Assembly (NCBI GenBank): GCA_016840855.1
Contig: JAEORO010000173.1
Location: 1-18,363, forward strand
Length of the DNA stretch: 18,363 bases
Direction of reading: 5' to 3'
DNA from: Candidatus Thorarchaeota archaeon
Lineage (GTDB): Archaea; Asgardarchaeota; Thorarchaeia; Thorarchaeales; Thorarchaeaceae
Within the stretch, counting starts at the first letter, position 1. The number at the start of each line of letters is the position of its first letter. Below are positions 3 to 18,363 of this stretch, in pieces. The notes under the pieces are model-generated. The model did no database searches. It was not told the origin of the DNA and saw only the letters and a list, made by a program, of their open reading frames with translations. The position numbers were made by a program, and so were the translations under genes.

Positions 3-1232
3 GATGTTGAAACTGGTAATCCAATTGAAGGAAACATCACAGTGATGGGTGATTTAGAATTCTTCGTTTCTTATAGTCCAGAAAAACCCACCCAAGGTCA
101 AGAGTTAACTGTGGTAGTGAATATTGTTGATGGTTATGGCAATCCAGTTCCAGGTCTGGAGGTAACAATTCAGCTGATGGATCTTCCACCAATGATTGCA
201 CATCCCACAGATCAAATTGGTGAGTACTTCGTAGAAATTCCACACATCCCCACAACTATGGGATATGGAGATTTCACTCTCACAATTACTGCAGTAGGAG
301 AGTATGTTGGGGAATCGATTGATACATCAACAACAATACCAGTCGATCCTGCAACTCCAGATTTCACAATGTCAACTAACACACTATCAATTGGTGCAGG
401 ACTATCATTTGTGCTGAGCCTTATTGGTATGGTAATCTACTTTAGAATTGCATCTTCAATGAAAGTTGATGACAAGTCACTTGAAGGTCGTAAGAAATCC
501 ATCAAGAATATGGATAGACTATACCTTCTAATTGTACTGGCAAGTGCAGCTGGACTTGCAGCATCATATTCAACATATACTGCGGGAGACTATTCTCTTG
601 CTCTAATACTAACAGTTGCTCTTCTTGGTTGTTCTGTACTTCTGTATGGGCTATGGCTTTATCGAGATGCAACTGCGGCTGTGCTTGTTCGAGGTTCACT
701 CAGCAGGAAAAGAATGGTGCTTGGTCTTTGGCATCTGGTGTTCGTCCCAGTCGTAATATTCCTGATCCTTCTGTATGGTGTTGAGATAGATTGGTTCAAA
801 GCATACATCATCGATCAATCATTTACAATTGGCACAATCACTGTACCTACAATTATGACGACTATTTTTGCAGCCTACCTATCTTCAATACTGGTAGTTG
901 TAGTGAATCTCTATAGAGAGGTGAACAAAGGTCTCAAGAAGATTGTGAAAATGGAAGATGCTGGAACACCTGCAAGTGTTGTTGAAGATGAGAAAACATC
1001 TATGGTCAGTAGATTCAGCTCATCTGTTAGAATCAAGTTCTTGATGTTCTTAGTGGTTGTGGGCGCGACTACCGTTATGAGCATGGACTTCTTGGCCAGT
1101 TGGGAGCTTGGTATCATAGTACTCCTGCCAGTAGCATTTCTAGTTGTGATACCATTTATCTCATCCAAAATAATTCAAGTTTTCAGCAAAATGTCTAGAG
1201 GAAGAATACCTTCTGCACCTGCAGATAGCTAG
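3..1232 (+). CDS. 5'-truncated cell-surface/membrane protein: Ig-like beta-sandwich ectodomain(s) followed by about 7 transmembrane helices
   Basis: The frame is open from position 3 (DVETGNPIEGNITV...), so the GTG at 42 is probably internal. Two D-x(2,3)-GNP[IV]-x-G motifs of the kind seen in bacterial Ig-like repeats. Seven hydrophobic segments from about nt 384, separated by alternating basic and short/acidic loops. Stop TAG followed by TAA. Confidence 0.8.
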   Translation, partial: DVETGNPIEGNITVMGDLEFFVSYSPEKPTQGQELTVVVNIVDGYGNPVPGLEVTIQLMDLPPMIAHPTDQIGEYFVEIPHIPTTMGYGDFTLTITAVGEYVGESIDTSTTIPVDPATPDFTMSTNTLSIGAGLSFVLSLIGMVIYFRIASSMKVDDKSLEGRKKSIKNMDRLYLLIVLASAAGLAASYSTYTAGDYSLALILTVALLGCSVLLYGLWLYRDATAAVLVRGSLSRKRMVLGLWHLVFVPVVIFLILLYGVEIDWFKAYIIDQSFTIGTITVPTIMTTIFAAYLSSILVVVVNLYREVNKGLKKIVKMEDAGTPASVVEDEKTSMVSRFSSSVRIKFLMFLVVVGATTVMSMDFLASWELGIIVLLPVAFLVVIPFISSKIIQVFSKMSRGRIPSAPADS

Positions 1233-1296: not shown

Positions 1297-2838
1297 CTAC
1301 TCTTCATGCAAGAATTCATCTGCATCATCGTACTCATCAGAGTAGGCTTCTTCATCAGCATCTTCTTCAGGTACTTCTTCATCACTCACATATTCTTCCG
1401 TTTTGTAAGTTTCTTCGACTGATGATGGCTCCTCTGTGGTTTCTGGTTTCGTATCCTCTTCTAGAATTTCAGGCTCTGCTTTAGGAGCAGCTGCAGCTTC
1501 CTCCTGAGTAGGCAAAATCTTAAGACCTGCATCTTGCTCAGCTACAAATTTCGCAATCTGAGCTTTTCTTGTGAAGTAAAGAGCAACGATAACAGCTAGA
1601 GATAAGGCTGCACCTACAATGGTGAGAGTAGTCAACCAAGCACTTGAGCTATCACCCAAGAGCTGTTGCCAAGTGATAACTAAAAATGCAAGACCTGCAG
1701 TATTCATGACAAAAGATCTAAGAGGTGTCCCCACCTTAGTGATTTCTGTGACATTGGTGTCAACCATAGCAGCAGCAATCACACCAGCGTTGTATTGTGT
1801 AGACTTTGTCTTCTTTGCTAATGTTTTGACATCAGTCGATTTCTTCTTGCCCATCCACCGAAGGGCTGTAGGAACTTTTTCTGAAAGAAGATTTGCATAG
1901 GCAATTTTAGCGTCTTCATGAGACAAGTTACATTTCTTGCACATGTCTAGTTTAGTGTTCCATTTACGTTTGCATTGTGGACATCTATCTGCCTGCCATG
2001 CATCTGGTGCAACTTCTCGAAGTCGCTGACGCACAATGTATTCACTAACACCCGTATCAACGCGACCTTCTTTCTTTTCTTTCTTCATTGAATCGAGTAA
2101 CGAGAAAAGAAGTGGCAATGCACCAAGAACCGTCAGATTTGGAAGAGAACGTATCTCTGATGCTTTCTTATGAATTCCCCTTAGCTTGTAAGCAGTCTTG
2201 AGGCCCTCCCAAAGGCCATTGAGGCTACCTGCAACACCATAAACAGCACCAACTGTAGCAATACTTGCTGTTATACCTGTTACTGAAGTGATGATATCAA
2301 TTGGTGTCGATGGTAGAAGGAATGAAAATTGATGCTGTAATATATGCTGCGTTGAATCTCCTTCAATGTAATAACGAAAATCTACGGTTGCCTCATAGAC
2401 ACCCGTAGCGAGCTTGATTGGACCTAAAACTGACATCATTGCAGAAAAGTCCATGCCCGCACTGACTGGGGGGATAGTGACTGATGGATCGACTGTGAAC
2501 CATGTATTAAGGTGTGAATCAACTATTTGAATTGGAAACAACGGATATCCCTGATACCAAAATGTTATCGTTCCAGTAACGTTGAGAGTCTGAGAACCAC
2601 TTGCATTCAACTGAAGCGTGAGAATCATAGGTCCATCTAGATTTAATGGAAGAGGGGATTCAGGAGAATAATCCTTGAGGTTCATGCCATCCAATGCTGC
2701 ATAGACATATAATCTGCCATCATTAATGAAGTCATCAGGATATACTTGAGCATTGGCGGTCGTAACACCGCCAATCAATATTACTAGAAACAAAGTCATA
2801 AAGCCTATAATTAATAGACGTGATGGGGAGCGACGCAT
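1297..2838 (-). CDS. Hypothetical membrane protein (513 aa): signal/TM segment, beta-rich ectodomain, TM, CxxC-x10-CxxC Zn ribbon, possible winged HTH, 2 TMs, acidic tail
   Basis: ORF track. N-terminal MRR + hydrophobic stretch + ANA-Q cleavage-like site. CPQC-x10-CKKC at nt 1930-1983. E/D-rich C-terminal ~65 aa. Confidence 0.8.
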   Translation of the reverse strand: MRRSPSRLLIIGFMTLFLVILIGGVTTANAQVYPDDFINDGRLYVYAALDGMNLKDYSPESPLPLNLDGPMILTLQLNASGSQTLNVTGTITFWYQGYPLFPIQIVDSHLNTWFTVDPSVTIPPVSAGMDFSAMMSVLGPIKLATGVYEATVDFRYYIEGDSTQHILQHQFSFLLPSTPIDIITSVTGITASIATVGAVYGVAGSLNGLWEGLKTAYKLRGIHKKASEIRSLPNLTVLGALPLLFSLLDSMKKEKKEGRVDTGVSEYIVRQRLREVAPDAWQADRCPQCKRKWNTKLDMCKKCNLSHEDAKIAYANLLSEKVPTALRWMGKKKSTDVKTLAKKTKSTQYNAGVIAAAMVDTNVTEITKVGTPLRSFVMNTAGLAFLVITWQQLLGDSSSAWLTTLTIVGAALSLAVIVALYFTRKAQIAKFVAEQDAGLKILPTQEEAAAAPKAEPEILEEDTKPETTEEPSSVEETYKTEEYVSDEEVPEEDADEEAYSDEYDDADEFLHEE

Positions 2839-2910: not shown

Positions 2911-3324
2911 CTAGTTTGAATTAGTTTTTGAGGTTGGATCCTTTGTTCCCCTAATCATGTCTGCGACTTTTCTTGCAACTGTTACAAAACCCTCACTCTT
3001 TTTCATGACTCCTTTCGCTCCAACTTCTGCTGCGTGTTTCGCTGTATCAGGATCAAAATATGCTGTTAGAAGGTGGATGTTTTTTATTCCAAGCTCTATG
3101 AGTTTTCGTGTGCATTCGATTCCATCCATGGAGGGCATTTTCATGTCCATCAAGACAATGTCAGGAAACATCCCATTGTCTATCAATCTAGAAGCCTTGT
3201 CAATTGCTTCTTGTCCATTAGACGCAATCAGGAGTTCAAAGTCATCCAAAAAGCGTTTGAGATACATATGCATCACTTCATGAATTGCAGGTTCATCATC
3301 TACGATTAGGATTCGAAAAGTCAT
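2911..3324 (-). CDS. Stand-alone response regulator receiver (CheY-like) protein
   Basis: ILIVDDE acidic pocket, phosphoacceptor Asp in DIVLMDMKMPSMDG, Thr in LLTAY, Lys in GVMKK. ATG at 3324 preferred because it follows GTGAGGATG; alternatives are 3330 and 3336. Confidence 0.92.
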   Translation of the reverse strand: MTFRILIVDDEPAIHEVMHMYLKRFLDDFELLIASNGQEAIDKASRLIDNGMFPDIVLMDMKMPSMDGIECTRKLIELGIKNIHLLTAYFDPDTAKHAAEVGAKGVMKKSEGFVTVARKVADMIRGTKDPTSKTNSN

Positions 3325-3336
3325 ATGCATCCTCAC

Positions 3337-5122: not shown

Positions 5123-6022
5123 ATGAAATTGCGACTCGGAAATAATTTAATCCCGTATCCCATCTTCACTATAAAGGGTCGTTTGCGATTATGTGGGCTG
5201 TCGGATTCAGATGTTTCAGAGGTAGTAAATGATGCAGTGATTTCAGATGCTAATACTGAAGAAGATCTCCTCAATCGCATTCGTGATGTACTAAATTTAA
5301 AACAACCTTCGATTCTAAGAAAATTCGAAATTCTGACCAAATATGAGAAGTTTCGTGGCGATTCTTCAAAACTGCCAGCGATTGTTGTTGTAATCGAGGG
5401 AGCATCGGCTTCTGGGAAGTCACTGATTGCACTCGAGTTGATGCATGATCTTATTGCTACTAGATTCATTAGCACTGATTCAATTCGTCAAGTTCTACGG
5501 GGAATATTGAAGGAAGATGAATATCCGGAATTATTTTGCCACACCTATCAAGCACACACTTTTAGACAATCAGGACCACAGGGCTTGAAACCAATTGTCA
5601 GAGGGTTCTTGGCACAGTGTGAAATCATAAAACCTCATATTGTCACCATGACAAAGAGAGTAATCACTGAAGGAGCTATTGCTGTTGTAGAGGGAGTTCA
5701 CATTCAGCCAGGTACAATTCAAAATTTCAGTTCTGGGATTATTGAAATCTTGGTTGATCCAGATTATGAAACACATAAAGCTATGTTCGCAAGTAAACAC
5801 GAAATTGGCAAACTCCAGTCGGTTTCTGATGACATAATTGTTAGAGATAAAGAGTTTGAAGCCACTCGTTTGATACAGGAGTATTTGCGATCTGAAGCAC
5901 GAAAAGAGGGTGTAGCAATCATTCCTTTAACAAGTTATGAAGATATTCGATTGAAAATCTCAGAGATAATAATGGCGAGAGTAACGCGGCTCCTTGAATC
6001 GTATGAAGAAGGTGTAAGCTAA
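5123..6022 (+). CDS. pgk2: 2-phosphoglycerate kinase family P-loop kinase
   Basis: Walker A-like GASASGKS, followed by the family motifs ISTDSIRQVLR, LFCHTYQA, GFLAQC and VVEGVHIQP. Confidence 0.8.
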   Translation: MKLRLGNNLIPYPIFTIKGRLRLCGLSDSDVSEVVNDAVISDANTEEDLLNRIRDVLNLKQPSILRKFEILTKYEKFRGDSSKLPAIVVVIEGASASGKSLIALELMHDLIATRFISTDSIRQVLRGILKEDEYPELFCHTYQAHTFRQSGPQGLKPIVRGFLAQCEIIKPHIVTMTKRVITEGAIAVVEGVHIQPGTIQNFSSGIIEILVDPDYETHKAMFASKHEIGKLQSVSDDIIVRDKEFEATRLIQEYLRSEARKEGVAIIPLTSYEDIRLKISEIIMARVTRLLESYEEGVS

Positions 6023-9118: not shown

Positions 9119-9211
9119 ATCAATAGAAGATACAATAGTTTCCTAAGAATCTAGCATCTACCAAATGTTTTTAGAATGAAACCTATCGAACTCAGTTTGA
9201 AGGTGACCTAC

Positions 9212-11182
9212 ATGAATAGCTCTCAGAGTGATGAGAATAGGATTGATTGCTCAATCCTACAGATCCTTTTCGATTCATCTCCACAAGCAGTCCTCATTAT
9301 CGAAGATGGCAAGGTTGTGTATACTAACTCAGCACTTGCACATGCAGTGGGATTCAAGCCACAGCAAGTAGTGGGTCAAGAAGTCACTCATATTGTAAGT
9401 ATGATTGGCATGCAGGACTACGATTCTGTGGTGTCAAGATTCTCAGCAATTAGTGCTGGAAAGATGGAGTCGGATAAGGAACGCTTTCATTTCAAAGATG
9501 CTGAAGGAAGTAGGTACGTTTTGGAATTCTCGGCTAAGATAATTGAAGCTGACAATAAGAGGTATGTAGTTCTTTATGGAAATGATGTTACAGGAGATGA
9601 ACTATCAAAGGAAACTCTCGCAACAGAACGAAGAGCCTATAGTGTGATTGCGGAAGCTGCCCTTAGCTCCGACAAGTTACCTCAAATATGCGACAGAATA
9701 TTAAGAGGTCTTATTGAAACCCTTAGATTTGATCTTGGGACAATTCGACTATATGATGCTGAAGATTGCACTCTTAAGCTGATGACATCCTATGGTATTG
9801 AAAAAGGAGGCACACCTGAAACCATTGCACTAGAGGACCCCAATTTTCTTGTTGCGCGAACTGCTAGAACAAAATCACCACTTTTCACTCAGGATATTGA
9901 AATGACACCTGAGAGCGAAGATAGAATGGTAAGAGCGAGAAACTTGGGTGTGCGCACACTGATTTTCTGGCCTATTTTAGGATCTGAGGAGAACCTTTTG
10001 GGTGTAATCAACGTCGCAACTAAAGAGCCTATCATTTTAGAGCAAGAGCAAAGAACCGTTTTTGCCACCATAGCAGGTATGTTCTCCACTATCCTTGAAC
10101 GAAGGAAAACGGAAGAGGAACTTCAAGAATTCAAAGACCGTTTTACAGCATTTGCTGATAACATGCCAGGCCCGGTATATCTTAAGGATGATAAGTCCAA
10201 GGTTCTTTTTGTGAACAGATACATGCGTGAAGCGACTCAAAAAGCAACTAAGGCTAATTGGGAAGGATTGAGTAACCTTGAGCTATTCCCAAAAGAGCGA
10301 GCAGAAAATCTCACAGAAGAAGATTTGAGAATCTTGGTAAACGGACCAATTGACCGCATTCAAGAAACAATGACAGATGGAGAAATTCGAACTTTTCGAA
10401 CGCATAAGTTTCCCATAATCCGTGAAGGAAAACCACCATTGATTGGTGGATTTTCGATTGACATTACTGATAGAATAGTTGCAGAGAAACAAAGAGAGGA
10501 AGCGAGAGCTCGTGCCATATGGATGTCGGATCTAATGGCTCATGATATCAATAACCTACACCAAGGCATTATGTCTAGTTTAGAGTTGATGCTCGAGGAT
10601 GAACAATTTCCCAGGCACTTAATGGGCATTGCACAGAATGCTTTACTTCAGGTAAATCGAAGTGTATCGCTTATTAATAATGTAAAGAAATTCTCAGTAG
10701 TAAATCAGGAAGAACTCGTTCTTGAGAAAACCGACCCTGCGGAATCTCTTATTGCTGCAATTCAAACCGTCAAACAATCATTTCCTCAACGTAAAATCAG
10801 CATCACAACTAATCTTGAAACTGGGAAATATTGTATCATGTCCAATACGTTTCTTCATGATGTATTCTTCAACCTGCTCCACAATGCTGTGAAATACACT
10901 GTGAGTGAGAGTGTTCGCATAGATGTCACAACTAGTCTTGTTGAGGAGGGAAAATTCATTCGATTTGACTTCGAGGACTGGGGACAAGGGATTGATGATA
11001 GATTCAAGAAGAGTATTTTGACAGGCATTAATGATCGGGTCCATAGAGTATCTGGGGTAGGACTTACTCTTGTAAAACAAATCGTCGACCAGTACGGAGG
11101 AAGCATTTCAGTAGAAAATCGTGAGAAAGGAGATTTCACGAAAGGTACAAGATTCATTATTAAATTACCAAATGGATGCTAG
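9212..11182 (+). CDS. Soluble PAS-GAF-PAS sensor histidine kinase
   Basis: PAS (LFDSSPQAV...YTNSAL), GAF (LVARTARTKSP...WPIL...LLGVINV), PAS (FADNMPGPVYLKD...FVN...DITDR), H-box MAHDINN, N-box NLLHNAVKY, G1 DWGQG, G2 SGVGL. ATG 9212 follows SD GAAGGTGA; the ORF-track start is 9176. Confidence 0.92.
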   Translation: MNSSQSDENRIDCSILQILFDSSPQAVLIIEDGKVVYTNSALAHAVGFKPQQVVGQEVTHIVSMIGMQDYDSVVSRFSAISAGKMESDKERFHFKDAEGSRYVLEFSAKIIEADNKRYVVLYGNDVTGDELSKETLATERRAYSVIAEAALSSDKLPQICDRILRGLIETLRFDLGTIRLYDAEDCTLKLMTSYGIEKGGTPETIALEDPNFLVARTARTKSPLFTQDIEMTPESEDRMVRARNLGVRTLIFWPILGSEENLLGVINVATKEPIILEQEQRTVFATIAGMFSTILERRKTEEELQEFKDRFTAFADNMPGPVYLKDDKSKVLFVNRYMREATQKATKANWEGLSNLELFPKERAENLTEEDLRILVNGPIDRIQETMTDGEIRTFRTHKFPIIREGKPPLIGGFSIDITDRIVAEKQREEARARAIWMSDLMAHDINNLHQGIMSSLELMLEDEQFPRHLMGIAQNALLQVNRSVSLINNVKKFSVVNQEELVLEKTDPAESLIAAIQTVKQSFPQRKISITTNLETGKYCIMSNTFLHDVFFNLLHNAVKYTVSESVRIDVTTSLVEEGKFIRFDFEDWGQGIDDRFKKSILTGINDRVHRVSGVGLTLVKQIVDQYGGSISVENREKGDFTKGTRFIIKLPNGC

Positions 11183-11277: not shown

Positions 11278-11826
11278 TTGGTCGAAGAAGGTCCCAGTTA
11301 TGTACTAAAAATGGTTGCACTTGGGGATGGGGCAGTAGGTAAAACAAGTTGCATTATGCGTTATACAGAGAATAGTTTTGGAGAGTCGTATAAAGCAACA
11401 ATTGGGACCAATATTGCTGTGAAAAATGTAGAGATTGAGCTTCACCCTGGTGAGTTATCGAGAGCCCAGATTGTTTTATGGGACCTTGCAGGACAACCAA
11501 CTTACAAGGACCTTCGTTCAAGATATATGGTTGGAGCTGCGATTGCATTTATTGTGTATGATGTTACAAGACCGCCAACATTTCTCAATGTGGCAGATTG
11601 GTATGATAATTTCATCACTGTATCTCCAGATGCAGTTGTGATTCTCGTGGCAAACAAAGTTGACAGAGAAGATCGATTAGTCCCTCAAGAGGCAGGCGAG
11701 ATGTTTAGTCGCTGGAGAAAAATTGACTATATTGAAACCTCTGCAAAAACTGGAGAGAATGTTGAAATGATGTTCACAAAATGTGTAGAAATAGCTATCC
11801 GTAATGAAGAAGATCGACTTGGCTAG
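11278..11826 (+). CDS. Rab-like small GTPase (Ras superfamily; eukaryotic signature protein)
   Basis: G1 GDGAVGKT, G2 ATIG, G3 WDLAGQ, G4 NKVD, G5 ETSAK. RabF-like YMVGA and IVYDVT. No C-terminal Cys prenylation motif. TTG start after GAGGAAGG. Confidence 0.93.
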   Translation: MVEEGPSYVLKMVALGDGAVGKTSCIMRYTENSFGESYKATIGTNIAVKNVEIELHPGELSRAQIVLWDLAGQPTYKDLRSRYMVGAAIAFIVYDVTRPPTFLNVADWYDNFITVSPDAVVILVANKVDREDRLVPQEAGEMFSRWRKIDYIETSAKTGENVEMMFTKCVEIAIRNEEDRLG

Positions 11827-11859: not shown

Positions 11860-13410
11860 TTAAGGCAGGAGTGTTGGCACTGCATCAAATGCATAGTCCA
11901 TAACTACATCGGGGAATATGAAAAGTGCAATAACCGCGATGACACAAATGATAACCGCTGCAAATGGAATAACTGGCAGTTTGATTCTCGAGTCATTACT
12001 TGGTTTCATCATGTAGGTGTACCTTAGTACTCGCAAATAATAACCCAATGAGAAGACTGAGTTCAGCAGACCGATGAGTGCAAGCCACCACATTCCAGCA
12101 AGCACAGCACTCCAAAAAAGAAAGAATTTAGACCAAAATCCGACTGTCAAAGGCATTCCAGCTAATGAGAGCATCAGGATGGCAAGTAGCCCCGCAGCCA
12201 ATGGTGCACGCTTACTAAGTCCTGCAAGGTCCTCATAGGTAATTCGCTTTGACAGCTTGATTGAAAGTGCCCAGATAAGAATGAAGGCTGAAGTCTTCAT
12301 CAGTGCGTGAGTAAAGGCATGAAATAATGCAGCACCTATTCCCAAAGTATATGCATCAGGGATTGCAGGATTGGCTGCAGCGATGCCTATGAAGAGATAG
12401 CCCATCATAGCTATACTACTGTACGCCAGCATCCGTATAATATCTCTCTGAGCGAGAGCTAATACATTTCCAATAACCATGGTTAGAATGGCAACTCCAA
12501 CAATGAGGAACGTCCATTGCGTTTGAGCAGCAACAAATCCGACTACAAGGATTCGCATCAATGCTCCAACACCTGTCTTCTTAGACCCGCCTGCAAGATA
12601 TGCTGTAACGCTTCCATCTGCACTGGCATATGCATCAGGTACCCATTGCCATCCAGGGAAGACTCCAACCTTGAAACCAAATGAAACTATGAATAATACT
12701 ACAGCCAATAAAATCGTATACGCAGCATTTGGAGTTGTGGAGAACATCACCCAGATGCTATCAACCGCAGCTGCTACCTCAATAAGATTGGTTGTCCCAG
12801 TTACTCCATATACTAGCGCGATTCCGAAGATCATTAACATCGTGGCAAGAAGTCCCATGACAAAGTACTTTGTAGCACCGTCAATTGCTTCTCTAGCAGG
12901 TCCTAATGCAACTAAAATATAGGTAGGAGTGGACATGAGCTCCCAAGCCAAGAACAAGCCGACTAAATCAGTTGCCATCACAACCCAAATCGCTCCTGCA
13001 AAGGAGATCAATAGCAGGAAATTGTACGGACCTTTATCACCACCATAGAGAGTGGAGGACATTAAGACGAGAAAAGCGACGATGAGTATGATGAAGATGA
13101 AGAAATCAGCCATGGGATCTCTCACGAATTGACCAAATGACACTCCACCTTCACCAATGAGAGAAATAATCACTGGATCAAGTGGATTAAGAATAACCAT
13201 TTCAATTGAAGCTAGTATCACACCAACAAAACTGATACCCAGCGGATTGAAACGCATACCAGCAACTAGTGATATGATTGCGAAAAGCACTAGTGTTAAT
13301 GCTGGAAGGGACATGATCCAGCCAGGGGGTGTGATGGAGAGTAGAAGGTCTCTTACAGGAGCCAAAACCCCTCTGAGAATATCAGCAATTTGGGTTAGTT
13401 GAAGTAACAT
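11860..13410 (-). CDS. nuoN: Complex I-like antiporter subunit N (NuoN/FpoN)
   Basis: FLAWELMS, ATKYFVMG, GFKVGVFP..QWVPDAY, GGSKK, MLAYSSI and PLTVGFWSKF (TM12 Lys). ATG 13410 overlaps the nuoM stop (TGATG); alternative start TTG 13413. Confidence 0.9.
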   Translation of the reverse strand: MLLQLTQIADILRGVLAPVRDLLLSITPPGWIMSLPALTLVLFAIISLVAGMRFNPLGISFVGVILASIEMVILNPLDPVIISLIGEGGVSFGQFVRDPMADFFIFIILIVAFLVLMSSTLYGGDKGPYNFLLLISFAGAIWVVMATDLVGLFLAWELMSTPTYILVALGPAREAIDGATKYFVMGLLATMLMIFGIALVYGVTGTTNLIEVAAAVDSIWVMFSTTPNAAYTILLAVVLFIVSFGFKVGVFPGWQWVPDAYASADGSVTAYLAGGSKKTGVGALMRILVVGFVAAQTQWTFLIVGVAILTMVIGNVLALAQRDIIRMLAYSSIAMMGYLFIGIAAANPAIPDAYTLGIGAALFHAFTHALMKTSAFILIWALSIKLSKRITYEDLAGLSKRAPLAAGLLAILMLSLAGMPLTVGFWSKFFLFWSAVLAGMWWLALIGLLNSVFSLGYYLRVLRYTYMMKPSNDSRIKLPVIPFAAVIICVIAVIALFIFPDVVMDYAFDAVPTLLP

Positions 13411-15026
13411 CAAGGTCCAACACCTCCAATGATAAATGTGACAACAGATTGAGTGAAGCTTAGAACCAAGTCGGGCCAGACGCCTAAGAGGATAACAGGG
13501 ATTAACATCAGAATTGGAGCAATAAGGTCACTCCAAGGTGCTTCTGTAACATCTTTTTCTGGGTCCGGATCACTGAAGACGATTCGGTTCAACATCCACA
13601 GGATATAGCCCACAGTGATGAATATTCCAAATGTAATAATGGCAGACCAGAGGTAAATAACCACGGAGCCAAAGATCACAAGAGCCTCTGCGATGAAACC
13701 ACTGAATCCTGGCAAACCAAAGGCTGCGAAAGATGCTAGAATCAAGATAGCTGAGAGCTTTGGTGCTTTTGTCATGAGACCCTTGATGTCAGGAATCTCA
13801 CGTGTTCCTGCAGAGTATTTGAGTTGTCCAGCCATAATAAACATGATAGAGATTATCGTTCCATGACTGAACATCATGAATATTGAGCCCTGAAGCGCCA
13901 GATTAGCAGCATTGATGTAACCAACGTTCTCTGCAACAAGAGGGTCGAGTCCAATTCCAAATGCAGCGACAGCTACACCAAGCAACACCCAAGACATGTG
14001 GTTGATAGAAGTGTACGCAACGAGACTCTTCAGATCGGTCTGTGCCATTGCTGTAAATGCAGCATAGATACAAGTGAAGATAGCCAATGCTGCGAATGGG
14101 ATACTCAATCTCGAAAATGCACTTGGTACTAACCAGAGCCCAAGACGGATGAATGTGTAACCACCCATCTTCAGCAAGATTCCTGCGAGTATAACTGAAC
14201 CTGGTGTCGGAGCCTTCACATGAGCCCAAGGAAGCCAGTTGTGAAGAGGCCAGACAGGTAGTTTTACACCCGCGCCCATGAAAATTGCTAAGGCAAAACC
14301 AATTTGGACCATTGGTGCTAAAGTCGGCAATATGGTTCTAAGGCCTTCAGGTCCACCAGGAATTTCGATGAGTGCGAAGGTATAGATTCCGGAAGCTTCT
14401 CCAGCAACAAGATACAGCACAAAGAATGCAACTAGCATTACAGCTGAACCAAGATGAGTATAAATGAAGAATTTAACAGCCGCATGTTCACAACCTTCTT
14501 CACCCCACCTCCCAATGATAAAGAACATTGGAATGAGTACTAGCTCCCAGAAGATAAAGAATCCAATCAGATCAAGTGACATGAATACTCCCATTAATCC
14601 AGTCTGAAGAAGTAAGAAAAGCGAGTAATAGAATCCTTCAGTGTCATGAATGTGGTTTGAGCTAATAGCAGCAATGAAGACCACAAGATTGGATAACAGA
14701 ATCATGATCGCAGATAGTCCATCAACTCCTAATATGAACTGGAAAACTGTTTCAGGTGTGCCAATTGGCACAGTTCCTAGCACAAAACTGTTGACAAATT
14801 GCATTCCAGCATCTGTAGCGGTAGAGATGATTTCACTCGTATCAACTGCAAGGACTAGCAGGAGAGATAATGCAAGTTCAAGTGTAGTCACTAAGAGTGT
14901 TATTACTCGAGCACCTTTCCCTGCAAAGTATGCAACTAGTGCAGCAACAAGGGGTAGGATTAGCATGAATCCTAATGGCCCAAAAGGCAACGAGTTTAGG
15001 ATGTTAAAGGCAAAACCAAATTGCAT
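13410..15026 (-). CDS. nuoM: Complex I-like antiporter subunit M (canonical NuoM/FpoM)
   Basis: GVDGLS, FFIFWELVLIPMFF, VKLPVWPLHNWLPWAHVKAP, LAGILLKMGGY, AYTSINHM, MFSHG and PGFSGFIAE (TM12 Glu). SD GGAGTGA. Confidence 0.92.
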   Translation of the reverse strand: MQFGFAFNILNSLPFGPLGFMLILPLVAALVAYFAGKGARVITLLVTTLELALSLLLVLAVDTSEIISTATDAGMQFVNSFVLGTVPIGTPETVFQFILGVDGLSAIMILLSNLVVFIAAISSNHIHDTEGFYYSLFLLLQTGLMGVFMSLDLIGFFIFWELVLIPMFFIIGRWGEEGCEHAAVKFFIYTHLGSAVMLVAFFVLYLVAGEASGIYTFALIEIPGGPEGLRTILPTLAPMVQIGFALAIFMGAGVKLPVWPLHNWLPWAHVKAPTPGSVILAGILLKMGGYTFIRLGLWLVPSAFSRLSIPFAALAIFTCIYAAFTAMAQTDLKSLVAYTSINHMSWVLLGVAVAAFGIGLDPLVAENVGYINAANLALQGSIFMMFSHGTIISIMFIMAGQLKYSAGTREIPDIKGLMTKAPKLSAILILASFAAFGLPGFSGFIAEALVIFGSVVIYLWSAIITFGIFITVGYILWMLNRIVFSDPDPEKDVTEAPWSDLIAPILMLIPVILLGVWPDLVLSFTQSVVTFIIGGVGP

Positions 15027-15027
15027 T

Positions 15028-17220
15028 TTATATCACTCCCAAGGTAATCAATGTGAGAATAACCAGTATTCCAATACCGAACATGACAACACTAACATAG
15101 TCGTTAATTCGTCCTGTCTGAGATCCAGCCAATCCAGCTTCAGAAGCTCTTACACTCTCAGTTGAGATCCCCTCAGCAAATCCATCCACGATATTGTCAT
15201 CAAACCAACGCACTTTGGTCGAGATTGAAATAGCGGCGTCAGCTGACTTGAAGTCGATGCCATCAATGATTTTGTCATCCACACTGACTCTCCAGTTCTG
15301 TGCAAATCCAAGAAACTTGTTTACAAGCCAGTAATATGATTCATTAATGTACCAACGATGTTTCAGGAAATTGTGAATACTGCGTCGAACTCCATTCTCT
15401 GGTATCATTGTGTTGGGTGTGTCAGCATTTTTGACATAGATCCAATATGCAGGGATTCCTCCAAGAAGGAGTGCACCAACAGTAATTGCGAAGGGGATGA
15501 TTCCTGGATAGGTTACCTTTACGATAATCATCTCAGTTAGTATCTCGATGAAGAGTTCGAGTGTGATTGGGCCTTCCATATAGAATATTGTTTGAATGAT
15601 TGGAAATATGAGGAATGCAAATATTGTGAAGATCGCTAGGATGTACAGTGGAACCATCATGGCCTTACCTGGGTCATGCGGTTCTTGATGATGACCCTCA
15701 TCATCATGATGTTCAGGCCGTTTTCCATGGAAGACCATTCCAACTAGGCGAATGCTGTAGAAAATGGTACAGGCTGCAGCGGCTACTGCGAGTATGAACA
15801 GGAATATGCCAAGCGGATTGACGGTTGCCAGTTCATATGCGTATTCAATAATGGAATCTTTGGACCAAAAGCCCGACATGGGAGGTATTCCAGCCAATGC
15901 CAAGACACCGATGAGGATGACTCTATAGGTCCAAGGCATTGCATCTTTCAGTCCACCCATTTTTGACATGTATTTTGTATGAACCGCATGAATCACTCCT
16001 CCAGCCGCCAAGAACAGCAAGGCCTTGAATGCACCATGAGATATGATATGCATCACGCTGCTCAGATGCGCCGCTTGGTAATGACCTTCTACAGCGAATA
16101 CACCAGCAGTTCCCAGAGCAAGTATCATGTATCCTAATTGACTCAACGTGGAGAATGCAAGAACCTGCTTCAGTTCATTTGAAACCATGCCCATAGTAGC
16201 TGTCATGAAAGCAGTAACAGCACCTACTATAGCCACAATAAAGAAGAAAGATAGGACGGTCTCGATGCCAAGAGCCTGCAATGGAACGAAACCCGCAACA
16301 TGTTCCTCTCCTCCACCTGTAGCAGTCGCTGCTGCAATTGTTAGGATAAAACGTGCAGTTATGTAAACACCAGCCTTTACCATGGTTGCTGCGTGAATCA
16401 ATGCAGATACCGCGGTCGGACCAGCCATAGCTTCAGGCAGCCATACCTGGAGAGGTGCCTGTCCGGATTTCCCTATTGCTCCAGCAAAGATAAGGAGAAG
16501 AGCAGGAACTAGAACTCCCCAGCTAGCCATTGAACCCCACCAATCATTCACATTCGTCGCAAGATCTGTGAAGAGGAAAGAACCAGCAAATCCAAAGAGA
16601 AGAAGGATACCTCCAAGCATAAGAGCGTCACCAACTCGGGTGACAATGAATGCCTTTGTTCCGCAATGGGTATTGTACTCGCCCTCAGTCTTGAATTGAA
16701 GTAGAGGATTTTTCTGCTCATATCCAAGAGGATCTTCCTCTGGAGGGTTTCGTTTATCGTTCCAGAAGCCAATCAACCCGTAGCTGCAGAAGCCCATGAT
16801 CTCCCATCCGATAAAGGCAATCAGGAGATTGTTTGAAAGGACAAGTGTTAACATTCCGCCTCCAAAAGCCAGCATGAGAAAGAAGAACCGACTACGGTCT
16901 CCCTCGTGAGCCATGTACTCAGTACTGTACACATAGATCAGGAAACAGAGTGTGCTTGCTAAGACAGCCATGATAATGGATAGAGGGTCAAGAAGGACAC
17001 TGAACTCAAGATTTAGTGCGGGGATCCATGTCCATGTGGTTGTCTGAATAGAGTGACCAATCTCCGGAAGAAGTGACCAACAGAGGATCATGGTGATGCC
17101 CATGAAGATTGCAGGAGTCCAGTCCCTGAGTTTTTCATTGAAGCGCCCTACAAGAGGTACAAGCAGTGAACCACCCAGAGGAATCACGAGGATTAGATAG
17201 TAAGGTAGACCAAATAGCAT
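15028..17220 (-). CDS. nuoL: Complex I-like antiporter subunit L (NuoL/FpoL) with lengthened lateral helix, 730 aa
   Basis: DPLS, YSTEYM, GWEIMG, TRVGD, GKSGQAPLQVWLPEAMAGPT, LIHAATMVKAG, STLSQLG, HGAFKALLFL, GFWSKD, and C-terminal RWY...QTG + TM. Start moved from 17298 to ATG 17220 (or GTG 17223) because SD GAGGTGA overlaps the upstream stop. Confidence 0.92.
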   Translation of the reverse strand: MLFGLPYYLILVIPLGGSLLVPLVGRFNEKLRDWTPAIFMGITMILCWSLLPEIGHSIQTTTWTWIPALNLEFSVLLDPLSIIMAVLASTLCFLIYVYSTEYMAHEGDRSRFFFLMLAFGGGMLTLVLSNNLLIAFIGWEIMGFCSYGLIGFWNDKRNPPEEDPLGYEQKNPLLQFKTEGEYNTHCGTKAFIVTRVGDALMLGGILLLFGFAGSFLFTDLATNVNDWWGSMASWGVLVPALLLIFAGAIGKSGQAPLQVWLPEAMAGPTAVSALIHAATMVKAGVYITARFILTIAAATATGGGEEHVAGFVPLQALGIETVLSFFFIVAIVGAVTAFMTATMGMVSNELKQVLAFSTLSQLGYMILALGTAGVFAVEGHYQAAHLSSVMHIISHGAFKALLFLAAGGVIHAVHTKYMSKMGGLKDAMPWTYRVILIGVLALAGIPPMSGFWSKDSIIEYAYELATVNPLGIFLFILAVAAAACTIFYSIRLVGMVFHGKRPEHHDDEGHHQEPHDPGKAMMVPLYILAIFTIFAFLIFPIIQTIFYMEGPITLELFIEILTEMIIVKVTYPGIIPFAITVGALLLGGIPAYWIYVKNADTPNTMIPENGVRRSIHNFLKHRWYINESYYWLVNKFLGFAQNWRVSVDDKIIDGIDFKSADAAISISTKVRWFDDNIVDGFAEGISTESVRASEAGLAGSQTGRINDYVSVVMFGIGILVILTLITLGVI
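15181..15279 (-). repeat. Internal duplication in nuoL with a 78-nt (26-codon) period
   Basis: DDKIIDG (15259-15279) and DDNIVDG (15181-15201) are exactly 78 nt apart and identical at 17 of 21 nt. Confidence 0.75.
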
Positions 17221-17230
17221 CACAATCACC

Positions 17231-18361
17231 TCATGGAACGATAATTCCTTGTACAGCCGGGACAATGACATCCAGTGCCAGTCCTGGGAATATTCCAAAG
17301 ATTACAATTAGAATTCCAAGTATGATCATTGGAATGGTCATAGAATTGGAGCTCTCTTTCACATCCTCCAGCTCATCAGGATGAGGTCCGAGAAAGACCC
17401 TCCAGAAGAAGCGCAGCATATAGCCTGCGCTAAGAATTGAGCTTGTTACTGCAAGGATAGTTAGGATGAGGAAAGGTAGATTTACAACTGCACCTCCAAC
17501 AACAGCCCTCTCGAAGCCTCCAAAGAACATCATCCACTCACTGGCGAAACCAGAGAGTGGGGGACTTCCAGCAATGCTCATCATACCTATAGCTGCTGCG
17601 AATGCAGTGATAGGCATCTTGTTCGAGAGACCACCCATCTTAGTGATATCACGAAGCCCTGTCTGATGAATCACAGCACCTGCAGTCATGAACAGAAGAC
17701 CCTTAGAGAAGGCATGGTTGATTAGATGGAACATACCTCCTGCTGCCCCCATAGGCGAGTATACGCCAAGGGCAAAGAGAACATAGCCCATTTGTGATAC
17801 TGATGAGTATGCAAGTAGTCTCTTAATGTCAATCTGCGCAAGCGCCATAAAGCCACCATAGAACATTGTGATTACGCCCAAGGCGGCAACAAAGAATGAC
17901 AGTCCAATAGCAGCATCAGACAGTGTGATTAATCCGAACCGCATTAACGCGTATGCACCAGTTTCAATCATAGCACCAGATAGCAGAACTGAGATTGGTG
18001 TTGGGGCTTCTGCATGCACTGGTGGAAGCCACCAATGAATTGGGAACACCGCCATCTTAACAAGGAATCCTGCAGCGAGGAGAATGAAGACAACCTTCAA
18101 CACAGTTCCAATAGTTATTGCTAAACCTGGTAATGATGCATACAAGTTGAGAGAATTGATGCCTGCTTGTAGTAATGACAACTCAAAGGAACCTGCGAGT
18201 GAATACAGGATACCAAACCCGACTAGAATACACACTGCACCTGATTGAGTGTATAACCAGAACTTCAAAGCAGTCCGCTTACGTGTTTCAGGCAATCCCC
18301 AGAACAGAATCAGAAAATAGCTTGGGACCAGCATTATCTCCCATGCAATGAAGAACTCAAT
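17231..18361 (-). CDS. 5'-truncated additional antiporter-like subunit (NuoM/MrpD/HyfB-like; M')
   Basis: The frame is open to the window edge (IEFFIAWEIMLVPSY...). Motifs ALKFWLYT, GFLVKMAVFPIHWWLPPVHAEAPTPIS, LLAYSSVSQMG, NHAFSKGLLF and PPLSGFASEW. Stop TGA lies 10 nt before the nuoL ATG. Confidence 0.88.
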   Translation of the reverse strand: MEFFIAWEIMLVPSYFLILFWGLPETRKRTALKFWLYTQSGAVCILVGFGILYSLAGSFELSLLQAGINSLNLYASLPGLAITIGTVLKVVFILLAAGFLVKMAVFPIHWWLPPVHAEAPTPISVLLSGAMIETGAYALMRFGLITLSDAAIGLSFFVAALGVITMFYGGFMALAQIDIKRLLAYSSVSQMGYVLFALGVYSPMGAAGGMFHLINHAFSKGLLFMTAGAVIHQTGLRDITKMGGLSNKMPITAFAAAIGMMSIAGSPPLSGFASEWMMFFGGFERAVVGGAVVNLPFLILTILAVTSSILSAGYMLRFFWRVFLGPHPDELEDVKESSNSMTIPMIILGILIVIFGIFPGLALDVIVPAVQGIIVP

Positions 18362-18363
18362 CA

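Follow-up and report, generated by a model that had tools for sequence, protein, structure and literature searches.

The stretch of DNA analysed here (the window) comprises 18,363 nucleotides (nt) of contig JAEORO010000173.1 from a Candidatus Thorarchaeota archaeon, and our subject is the lateral helix (HL) of NuoL, a subunit of a complex I-like enzyme whose genes occupy the end of the window. Among named close homologues of this NuoL, most are labelled Candidatus Thorarchaeota as well. HL, a long surface helix, starts from the distal subunit L and doubles back over the antiporter-like subunits beside it; the transmembrane helix that closes it, TM16, serves as its anchor. The NuoL gene stands in a row of four antiporter-like genes, and its HL falls in a length class one module longer than the canonical one.

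The nuo operon and its four antiporter-like genes

The antiporter-like domain PF00361 is found in four consecutive genes on the minus strand, in the order Mx-L-M-N. The genes are separated by gaps of 10 nt and 1 nt and then by a short overlap, and Mx, L, M2 and N therefore constitute one operon, with the following members.

17231..18361, minus strand: Mx, an M-like antiporter-like subunit gene upstream of nuoL, cut by the window end (PF00361)
15028..17220, minus strand: nuoL-like gene, 730 amino acids (aa) from ATG (PF00361, PF00662, TIGR01974)
13410..15026, minus strand: M2, canonical nuoM-like gene, 538 aa (TIGR01972, NuoM clade)
11860..13413, minus strand: nuoN-like gene, 517 aa, the last of the operon (PF00361, TIGR01770, NuoN clade)

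Both M-type genes exceed the NCBIfam cut-off of 263.8 for TIGR01972 (NDH_I_M), Mx with a score of 282.9 and M2 with 401.7, and the second NuoM-type gene characteristic of 2M-type complex I is thus present, the two copies flanking nuoL. The best fit of the nuoN-like product is TIGR01770 (NDH_I_N), with a score of 287.9 under a cut-off of 332.6. NuoL itself contains PF00662 (expectation value, E, 3.4e-14) and PF00361 (E 1.5e-58), and scores 449.4 against TIGR01974 (NDH_I_L), above the cut-off of 407.5, and 488 against the equivalog NF005141, under its cut-off of 556. An alternative TTG start at 17298 gives a 756-aa reading of NuoL; the true start is likely the ATG at 17220, because the 100% identical database protein P0001 has 730 aa. 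Both numberings are used below, as marked. A full-length Mx of 512 aa is seen in P0270. In related archaeal loci Mx sits between nuoK and nuoL within the nuo operon, with nuoA to nuoK directly upstream of Mx in loci L011 and L005.

The charged residues of the pump are kept in all four subunits. They were read in the alignment columns of E. coli NuoM E144, K234, K265 and E407, which we take to be the numbers of the pump residues and whose identities were confirmed on the E. coli sequence. The patterns are as follows.

Mx: E-K-E-E
M2: E-K-K-E
N: E-K-K-K
L: E-K-K-K

The Glu of TM5, the Lys of TM7 and the Lys or Glu of TM12 are thus present in every one of the four. The TM8 lysine (the K265 column) is missing across the sampled Mx clade, being Glu in the window and Gly in L003 and L004, the two other Mx aligned.

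In an L-rooted phylogeny covering 100 sequences of L, M and N, M2 grouped inside the canonical NuoM clade (support 0.985), where E. coli NuoM and the M2 genes from loci L004 and L005 are also found. Mx fell in a separate clade of archaeal upstream-of-nuoL genes (support 0.645), which is sister to NuoM (0.937) and also contains the genes of L001, L003, L004, L005, L011 and L062; this clade is the sole source of the M-type subunit in the operons of ammonia oxidisers, which read Mx-L-N. The two M genes of the Nitrospira loci were also placed in different parts of the NuoM clade. Judged from this phylogeny, the archaeal four-pump set unites two old paralogs, one from the Mx clade and one canonical NuoM, and which of them counts as the "extra" gene depends on the comparison chosen.

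The lateral helix of NuoL and its modules

The C-terminal region of NuoL is divided as follows.

15112..15354, minus strand: lateral helix HL, the 81-aa span from WY to QTG (coordinates from the sequence; AlphaFold2 helix; length class)
15202..15279, minus strand: HL module B1, 26 aa, beginning DDKIIDG, aa 674-699 (756-aa numbering)
15124..15201, minus strand: HL module B2, 26 aa, beginning DDNIVDG, aa 700-725 (756-aa numbering), followed by the QTG turn
15031..15111, minus strand: C-terminal anchor helix TM16 after QTG (AlphaFold2 helix 705-726; conserved QTG-x-x-x-Y in alignments)

HL is accordingly made up of an N-terminal part A (WYINE..., 25 aa), B1, B2 and the QTG turn. The motif DDKIIDG (aa 674-680 of the 756-aa reading, nt 15259-15279) and the motif DDNIVDG (aa 700-706, nt 15181-15201) lie exactly 26 aa (78 nt) apart and are identical at 17 of 21 nt. 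The initial annotation had described an 81-aa WY-to-QTG span with two D-D-x-I-[IV]-D-G motifs at this spacing and with this nucleotide identity, and every one of these statements was confirmed on the sequence.

An AlphaFold2 monomer model of NuoL, built on a 96-sequence alignment (mean predicted local distance difference test score, pLDDT, 90.8; predicted template modelling score, pTM, 0.87), contains a single DSSP helix over residues 622-700 (79 residues), then a short turn and a helix at 705-726 (730-aa numbering, in which the WY-to-QTG span is 623-703). By arithmetic at 1.5 angstrom per residue, not by measurement on coordinates, 79 helical residues extend about 118 angstrom. The region is therefore predicted to be a continuous helix, in line with the initial annotation, and not a loop. 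The best fold matches of the model are all NuoL, ND5 or NdhF chains, and the C-terminal arrangement that marks the NuoL family, in which an extended lateral helix precedes a last transmembrane helix, is found in the model. A structure of a four-pump complex was not found among PDB sequences or folds, the 50 listed fold matches being judged by their descriptions. The model also has three non-helical loops, at residues about 151-171, 302-312 and 499-518 (730-aa numbering), which supply part of NuoL's extra length beyond the helix insertion; one of the loops is rich in His and acidic residues (around HHDDEGHHQEPHDPG), and pLDDT is below 50 at residues 306-309.

HL length, counted from the initial W/Y of W/Y-Y-x-D/N up to the final G of QTG, was determined in 234 NuoL proteins, namely the window protein, seven other Thorarchaeota proteins, E. 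coli NuoL, 143 representatives at 50% identity and 82 NuoL open reading frames (ORFs) from fetched loci. The set contains a few junk rows, such as the frameshifted C-termini of P0195 and L009, and it is enriched for relatives of the query, so that the proportion of long forms in it does not reflect how common they are in nature. The spans fell into the following classes.

27-28 aa: 7 of 234 NuoL
47-58 aa (canonical): 116 of 234 NuoL
79-85 aa: 98 of 234 NuoL
90-92 aa: 4 of 234 NuoL
100-108 aa: 9 of 234 NuoL

HL lengths are thus stepped by about 26 aa. Canonical examples include E. coli (51 aa), the Methanosarcinales-related archaeon of L018 (56 aa) and the ammonia oxidisers of L001, L003 and L062 (55-56 aa); the figures agree with the earlier expectation of a canonical span of roughly 50-55 aa with one motif. 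With 81 aa, the window protein has a lateral helix lengthened by about 26 aa, the second mark of the 2M type, and the assignment of the span as a NuoL lateral helix one module longer than canonical holds. The Nitrospira four-gene loci L029 and L039 belong to the same "+1 module" class with an HL of 80 aa, in line with the insertion of about 26 aa that the initial annotation gave for 2M complexes. Shorter and longer forms also exist: HL is one module shorter than canonical (27-28 aa) in P0133, P0134, P0145, P0150, P0164 and P0206, and two modules longer (105-108 aa) in P0152, P0155, P0160, P0173, P0225 and P0254, with three clear tandem units, almost identical copies, in P0225.

Homology between the two modules is evident from family profiles. 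When two 30-column unit profiles, built from 114 distinct Thorarchaeota sequences, were compared by hhalign, unit 1 and unit 2 aligned in register, columns 6-27 to columns 6-27, with a score of 18.5 and P 1.8e-4; none of 200 column shuffles reached this score (highest 16.4), and the reversed control gave 12.9. Against the one unit found in 94 canonical NuoL, the two Thorarchaeota units do equally well (score 27.2 and P about 3e-8 for each), and in 59 diverse long-HL proteins unit 1 and unit 2 match with P 1.6e-13. The pattern of a tandem duplication, two adjacent segments homologous in register to each other and to a single ancestral segment, is therefore present at the profile level. Individually, the units are similar (p <= 0.01) in 65 of 90 long-HL NuoL, with a best offset of 26 in 50 of them, 27 in 10, 28 in 4 and 25 in 1. 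Near-identical tandem copies occur in P0139 (two units) and P0152 (three units), and such duplications therefore do happen in the NuoL family. A search of solved chains with the last 150 aa of the window NuoL gave weak E-values (0.08 and 0.22), and in it the single motif of cyanobacterial NdhF (6hum_F, residues 599-612) was aligned twice, once per window motif and on the same target residues, as was the single motif of Paracoccus NuoL (8qby_L, residues 648-654); one alignment takes the upstream flank and motif 1, the other motif 2 and the downstream flank, which is the pattern that a duplication predicts. An apparent profile match to the N-terminal part of HL was rejected, as it is merely a 7-column overlap of two slices. 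These family-level comparisons support homology between the extra module and the one next to it, which is what would be expected after a tandem duplication.

Several observations on the window itself weigh against a helix lengthened in this way. By eye, nothing of the duplication can be recognised in this protein beyond the 7-residue motif, and of the remaining 57 nt of the two 78-nt units only 11 agree. Within the motif, 13 of 14 sites are the same at codon positions 1 and 2, and 4 of 7 at position 3; the 17/21 identity exists because the conserved residues require it, and the nucleotides add nothing further. The 20-aa ungapped comparison of unit with unit scored 9 (offsets 24-29), with p = 0.06 in 1000 shuffles, and averaging BLOSUM scores for each offset along the full HL of the window protein did not make offset 26 stand out. 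For the helix as a whole, hydrophobic periodicity was not above that of shuffles (amplitude 0.226 versus a mean of 0.205 and a maximum of 0.31), and the peak of the hydrophobic-moment spectrum, at 96 degrees per residue or 7 turns per 26 residues, was no stronger than in shuffles. In addition, pLDDT along HL drops from 93 to 63 toward the far end of the monomer model, as expected for a strap modelled without its partner subunits.

Two other origins of the second motif have to be considered in this light. It could belong to an unrelated 26-aa insertion and resemble the first by convergence, since HL stretches would contact the same surface on successive homologous subunits; a similarity confined in the window to seven residues, with a single-sequence p of 0.06, is what this would predict. 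We regard this as improbable, as the profile alignments run in register over 22-30 columns, beyond the motif, both units match the canonical unit equally well, near-identical copies are known in the family, and the best offset is exactly 26 in 50 of the 65 significant cases. Even less credible is that the motif recurs by chance in an amphipathic helix of simple composition, a view to which the window-only p of 0.06 and an amphipathic periodicity not above shuffles would be agreeable; both motifs are conserved at the fixed 26-aa spacing across the Thorarchaeota NuoL listed, and the profile score was not reached by any column shuffle. Thus, of the tandem duplication put forward by the initial annotation, the module homology is upheld by profiles, but the nucleotide similarity is not its trace, the duplication being old.

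Its age is indicated by the relatives. Among 120 matches listed, all 117 Thorarchaeota NuoL that reach the region have a span of 80 or 81 aa with both module positions; the core of the second motif, D-[NH]-[VI]-[VI]-D-G, is nearly invariant among them, and the first motif varies at its second residue (D, E or N). A NuoL tree was built from 530 columns upstream of HL with 231 tips, P0195, P0159, P0170 and L009 having been dropped beforehand. In it the window NuoL groups with long-HL archaeal-like representatives and not with the Nitrospira loci, and Thorarchaeota are nested in a ladder of the long-HL representatives P0122, P0123, P0143, P0125 and P0126, their nearest relatives outside the group (supports 0.88-0.995, with one node at 0.20); the HL insertion therefore predates the Thorarchaeota group. 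These data point to an ancient tandem duplication that probably preceded the radiation of the listed Thorarchaeota and has been conserved among them.

Lateral helix length and the number of antiporter-like genes

Canonical NuoL consists of part A and one B module, and we propose that this module was duplicated in tandem to give B1 and B2. The gain of 26 residues of helix would amount to about 39 angstrom at 1.5 angstrom per residue, with which the strap could span three neighbours instead of two. A strap spanning three neighbours would fit the four antiporter-like genes Mx, L, M and N. We consider it probable that the region is the HL of a Thorarchaeota complex I-like enzyme, lengthened by module duplication in keeping with its four antiporter-like genes. 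We infer a single membrane arm that holds all four subunits, their physical order along it, and a contact between the extra module and the extra subunit.

The relation between HL length and gene number was surveyed in 80 loci, fetched from among the matches listed from a scan of a genome collection with the NuoL alignment. Antiporter-like ORFs were counted on the same strand within 6 kb of each of 81 NuoL, L009 being left out for its broken C-terminus, with the following result.

Canonical HL: 62 NuoL counted, 0 in four-gene clusters, 56 in three-gene clusters
Long HL: 19 NuoL counted, 4 in four-gene clusters, 15 in three-gene clusters

All four of the four-gene clusters have a long HL; they are L004 (Nitrososphaerales), L005 (Bathyarchaeota) and L029 and L039 (Nitrospira). 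When clusters were required to have flanks of 1.6 kb or more on each side, four genes were found beside 0 of 44 canonical and 4 of 17 long HL. Co-location in the Thorarchaeota themselves was assessed by indirect matching, which gives a lower bound: of the 120 listed NuoL rows, at least 38 are shared with an Mx row and at least 35 with an M2 row, and at least 14 with both, namely the window's own and 13 on further contigs.

On the other side of the balance, 15 of the 19 long-HL NuoL lie in clusters with just three antiporter-like genes, and therefore a fourth subunit cannot be deduced from a long HL by itself. The window ends at 18363 inside Mx, so that the upstream part of the operon, nuoA to nuoK, falls outside it, and the 80 fetched loci include no Thorarchaeota locus in which the gene order of a close relative could be seen directly. 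HL class changes at least 37 times over the 231 tips of the NuoL tree (midpoint root, Fitch count); HL length is therefore labile, and gain and loss of modules are common. The three-gene loci with a two-module HL of 80-90 aa are L013, L014, L015, L020, L028, L030, L032, L040, L041, L046, L052, L064, L066, L067 and L011. By Pfam scan, L030 (Melioribacter) shows the ordinary order nuoABCDHIJKLMN, its NuoL having a long HL in which the motif is doubled, and L011 (Methanodesulfokora, archaeal) reads nuoABCDHIJK-Mx-L-N with an 84-aa HL and a doubled motif. Further antiporter-like genes lie nearby on the opposite strand in L014, L032 and L067, and those of L014 and L032 form a second L-M-N set with a canonical HL.

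These counts bear on a different explanation, in which the long HL is a lineage trait independent of subunit number, reaching another anchoring point or binding another partner, so that its occurrence beside four pump genes would be coincidental or loosely linked. The abundance of long HL in three-gene clusters favours this view, as do the complete 11-gene operons L030 and L011 with three antiporter-like genes each, the frequent changes of HL class on the tree, and the insertions that PMC9040806 places also in NuoL of three-pump complexes. We nevertheless think it unlikely, because every four-gene cluster known to us here (4/4 fetched plus the window) has a long HL, versus 0/62 of the canonical ones, although these clusters represent only about three independent lineages. 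HL length also changes by increments of about 26 aa, which is close to a single subunit's width, and in three-gene genomes the fourth subunit could be encoded elsewhere.

Among the fetched loci, then, four genes always accompany a long HL, and the reverse fails; a fourth antiporter-like gene may reside elsewhere in the three-gene genomes. The initial annotation had taken the helix as independent evidence for a fourth subunit in the same membrane arm and had asked whether it co-occurs strictly with the extra gene. One direction of this stands, since no canonical HL was found in a four-gene cluster, but just 4 of 19 long HL were, and the case that had been named as speaking against the idea, archaeal three-subunit NuoL of the same length with the double motif, is partly realised in L011. 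The step from HL length to a fourth subunit is thus weaker than had been held.

A broader reading, which we put forward tentatively and hold to be possible though doubtful, sees HL as a modular ruler, in which an N-terminal piece would be followed by 0-3 copies of a 26-27-aa D-x-x-[IV]-[IV]-D-G module (giving about 28, 55, 81 or 107 aa), with one copy per antiporter-like subunit spanned. Copies would have been gained and lost dozens of times in bacteria and archaea, three-gene long-HL NuoL would recruit a fourth pump encoded elsewhere, and the Asgard/TACK four-pump enzyme would have been built from two anciently diverged M-type subunits, not by a recent duplication of nuoM.

Known four-pump enzymes, the rest of the window and significance

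The kind of enzyme described here is already known from other microbes, and the Thorarchaeota case adds to it. 2M-type complex I (Chadwick, Hemp, Fischer, Orphan, ISME J 2018) is described in PMC9040806, PMC6606698, PMC7117926 and PMC7300363 as having a second NuoM and a lengthened NuoL, and PMC9040806 and PMC6606698 give the proposal that the 26-aa HL insertion makes room for a fourth pumping subunit. Like this type, so described, the window has two NuoM-type genes in its nuo cluster, and its NuoL is about 26 aa longer in the C-terminal amphipathic helix; it shares with the Nitrospira loci L029 and L039 an HL of about 80 aa with two related modules. The gene order differs, being Mx-L-M-N in the window versus L-M-M-N in Nitrospira and nuoLM1M2N in Chloroflexi (PMC7117926). 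Unlike in the 2M type, moreover, the two M-type genes of the window are old paralogs (the archaeal Mx clade and canonical NuoM) and not close duplicates, and the host is a Thorarchaeota archaeon.

Compared with canonical NuoL, Nqo12, ND5 and NdhF (3rko, 4he8, 6hum, 8qby), the window protein has the same fold (template modelling score normalised to the target 0.66-0.86) and the same order of elements, which is TM15, an HL starting with W/Y-Y-x-D/N-x-x-Y, a D-x-x-[IV]-[IV]-D-G module, QTG and TM16. It differs in having an 81-aa HL with two modules, whereas the canonical HL is 47-58 aa with one (51 aa without a DG motif in E. coli). Full-length superposition on canonical chains gave a root mean square deviation of 10-12 angstrom, versus 4-5 angstrom for 7aqw_L and 8qc1_L, which are described as tip or focus maps, and the contrast in this model-based comparison is consistent with a displaced HL and TM16.

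A further parallel is Complex_I_3 of Candidatus Manganitrophaceae, for which PMC9040806 reports a conserved 26-aa HL insertion in the distal pump subunit, likewise read as room for an extra pump; unlike the window, that complex has five pumping subunits and carries the helix on an MrpD-like subunit. The same paper also reports NuoL insertions in Manganitrophaceae complexes without extra pump genes, which resemble the 15 long-HL three-gene loci found here. The 11-subunit nuo operons of ammonia oxidisers (L001, L003 and L062) have an upstream-of-nuoL gene in the same Mx clade as that of the window, but they contain Mx-L-N only and a canonical HL of 55-56 aa; in the window, L004 and L005, by contrast, a canonical NuoM is present as well and HL measures 81 aa. 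A literature search that did not extend to the full text of Chadwick 2018 returned no paper on Mx-L-M-N in Thorarchaeota or one calling the insertion a duplicated module, and no priority is claimed; on Thorarchaeota NuoM and NuoL and on a 26-aa NuoL insertion, PMC9040806 was its one pertinent result.

The remaining genes of the window have deduced functions in part. Directly downstream of the nuo operon, on the other strand, lies a gene for a Ras/Roc-family small GTPase (11278..11826, plus strand; Pfam Ras, E 7e-42), and beyond it are genes for a sensor histidine kinase with PAS and GAF domains (9176..11182, plus strand) and a stand-alone response-regulator receiver (2911..3336, minus strand). 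There was no Pfam match at E <= 0.001 for the ORFs at 5123..6022 (plus strand, 299 aa), 1297..2838 (minus strand, 513 aa) and 3..1232 (plus strand, 409 aa). A 171-aa ORF at 14650..15165 (plus strand), antisense to the nuoM/nuoL junction and overlapping the end of the HL region, is most likely a by-product of the opposite coding strand.

In the prevailing view, four-pump variants of complex I differ in how many protons they move for each electron pair. In E. coli-type comparisons aside, insertions of 6-7 residues between L and M are reported to have lowered pumping (PMC3274701). An altered proton count would matter for life near the thermodynamic limit, or for running the enzyme in reverse. The combination of Mx-L-M-N with an HL one module longer, conserved across the listed relatives, adds an Asgard lineage to the four-pump picture, and duplication of a module would be an uncomplicated genetic means of adapting the strap to one more subunit. 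Because HL length is stepped, it can serve as an inexpensive marker, read from sequence, of unusual membrane arms, one that is unusable alone for calling a fourth subunit because most long-HL NuoL here are encoded in ordinary three-gene clusters.

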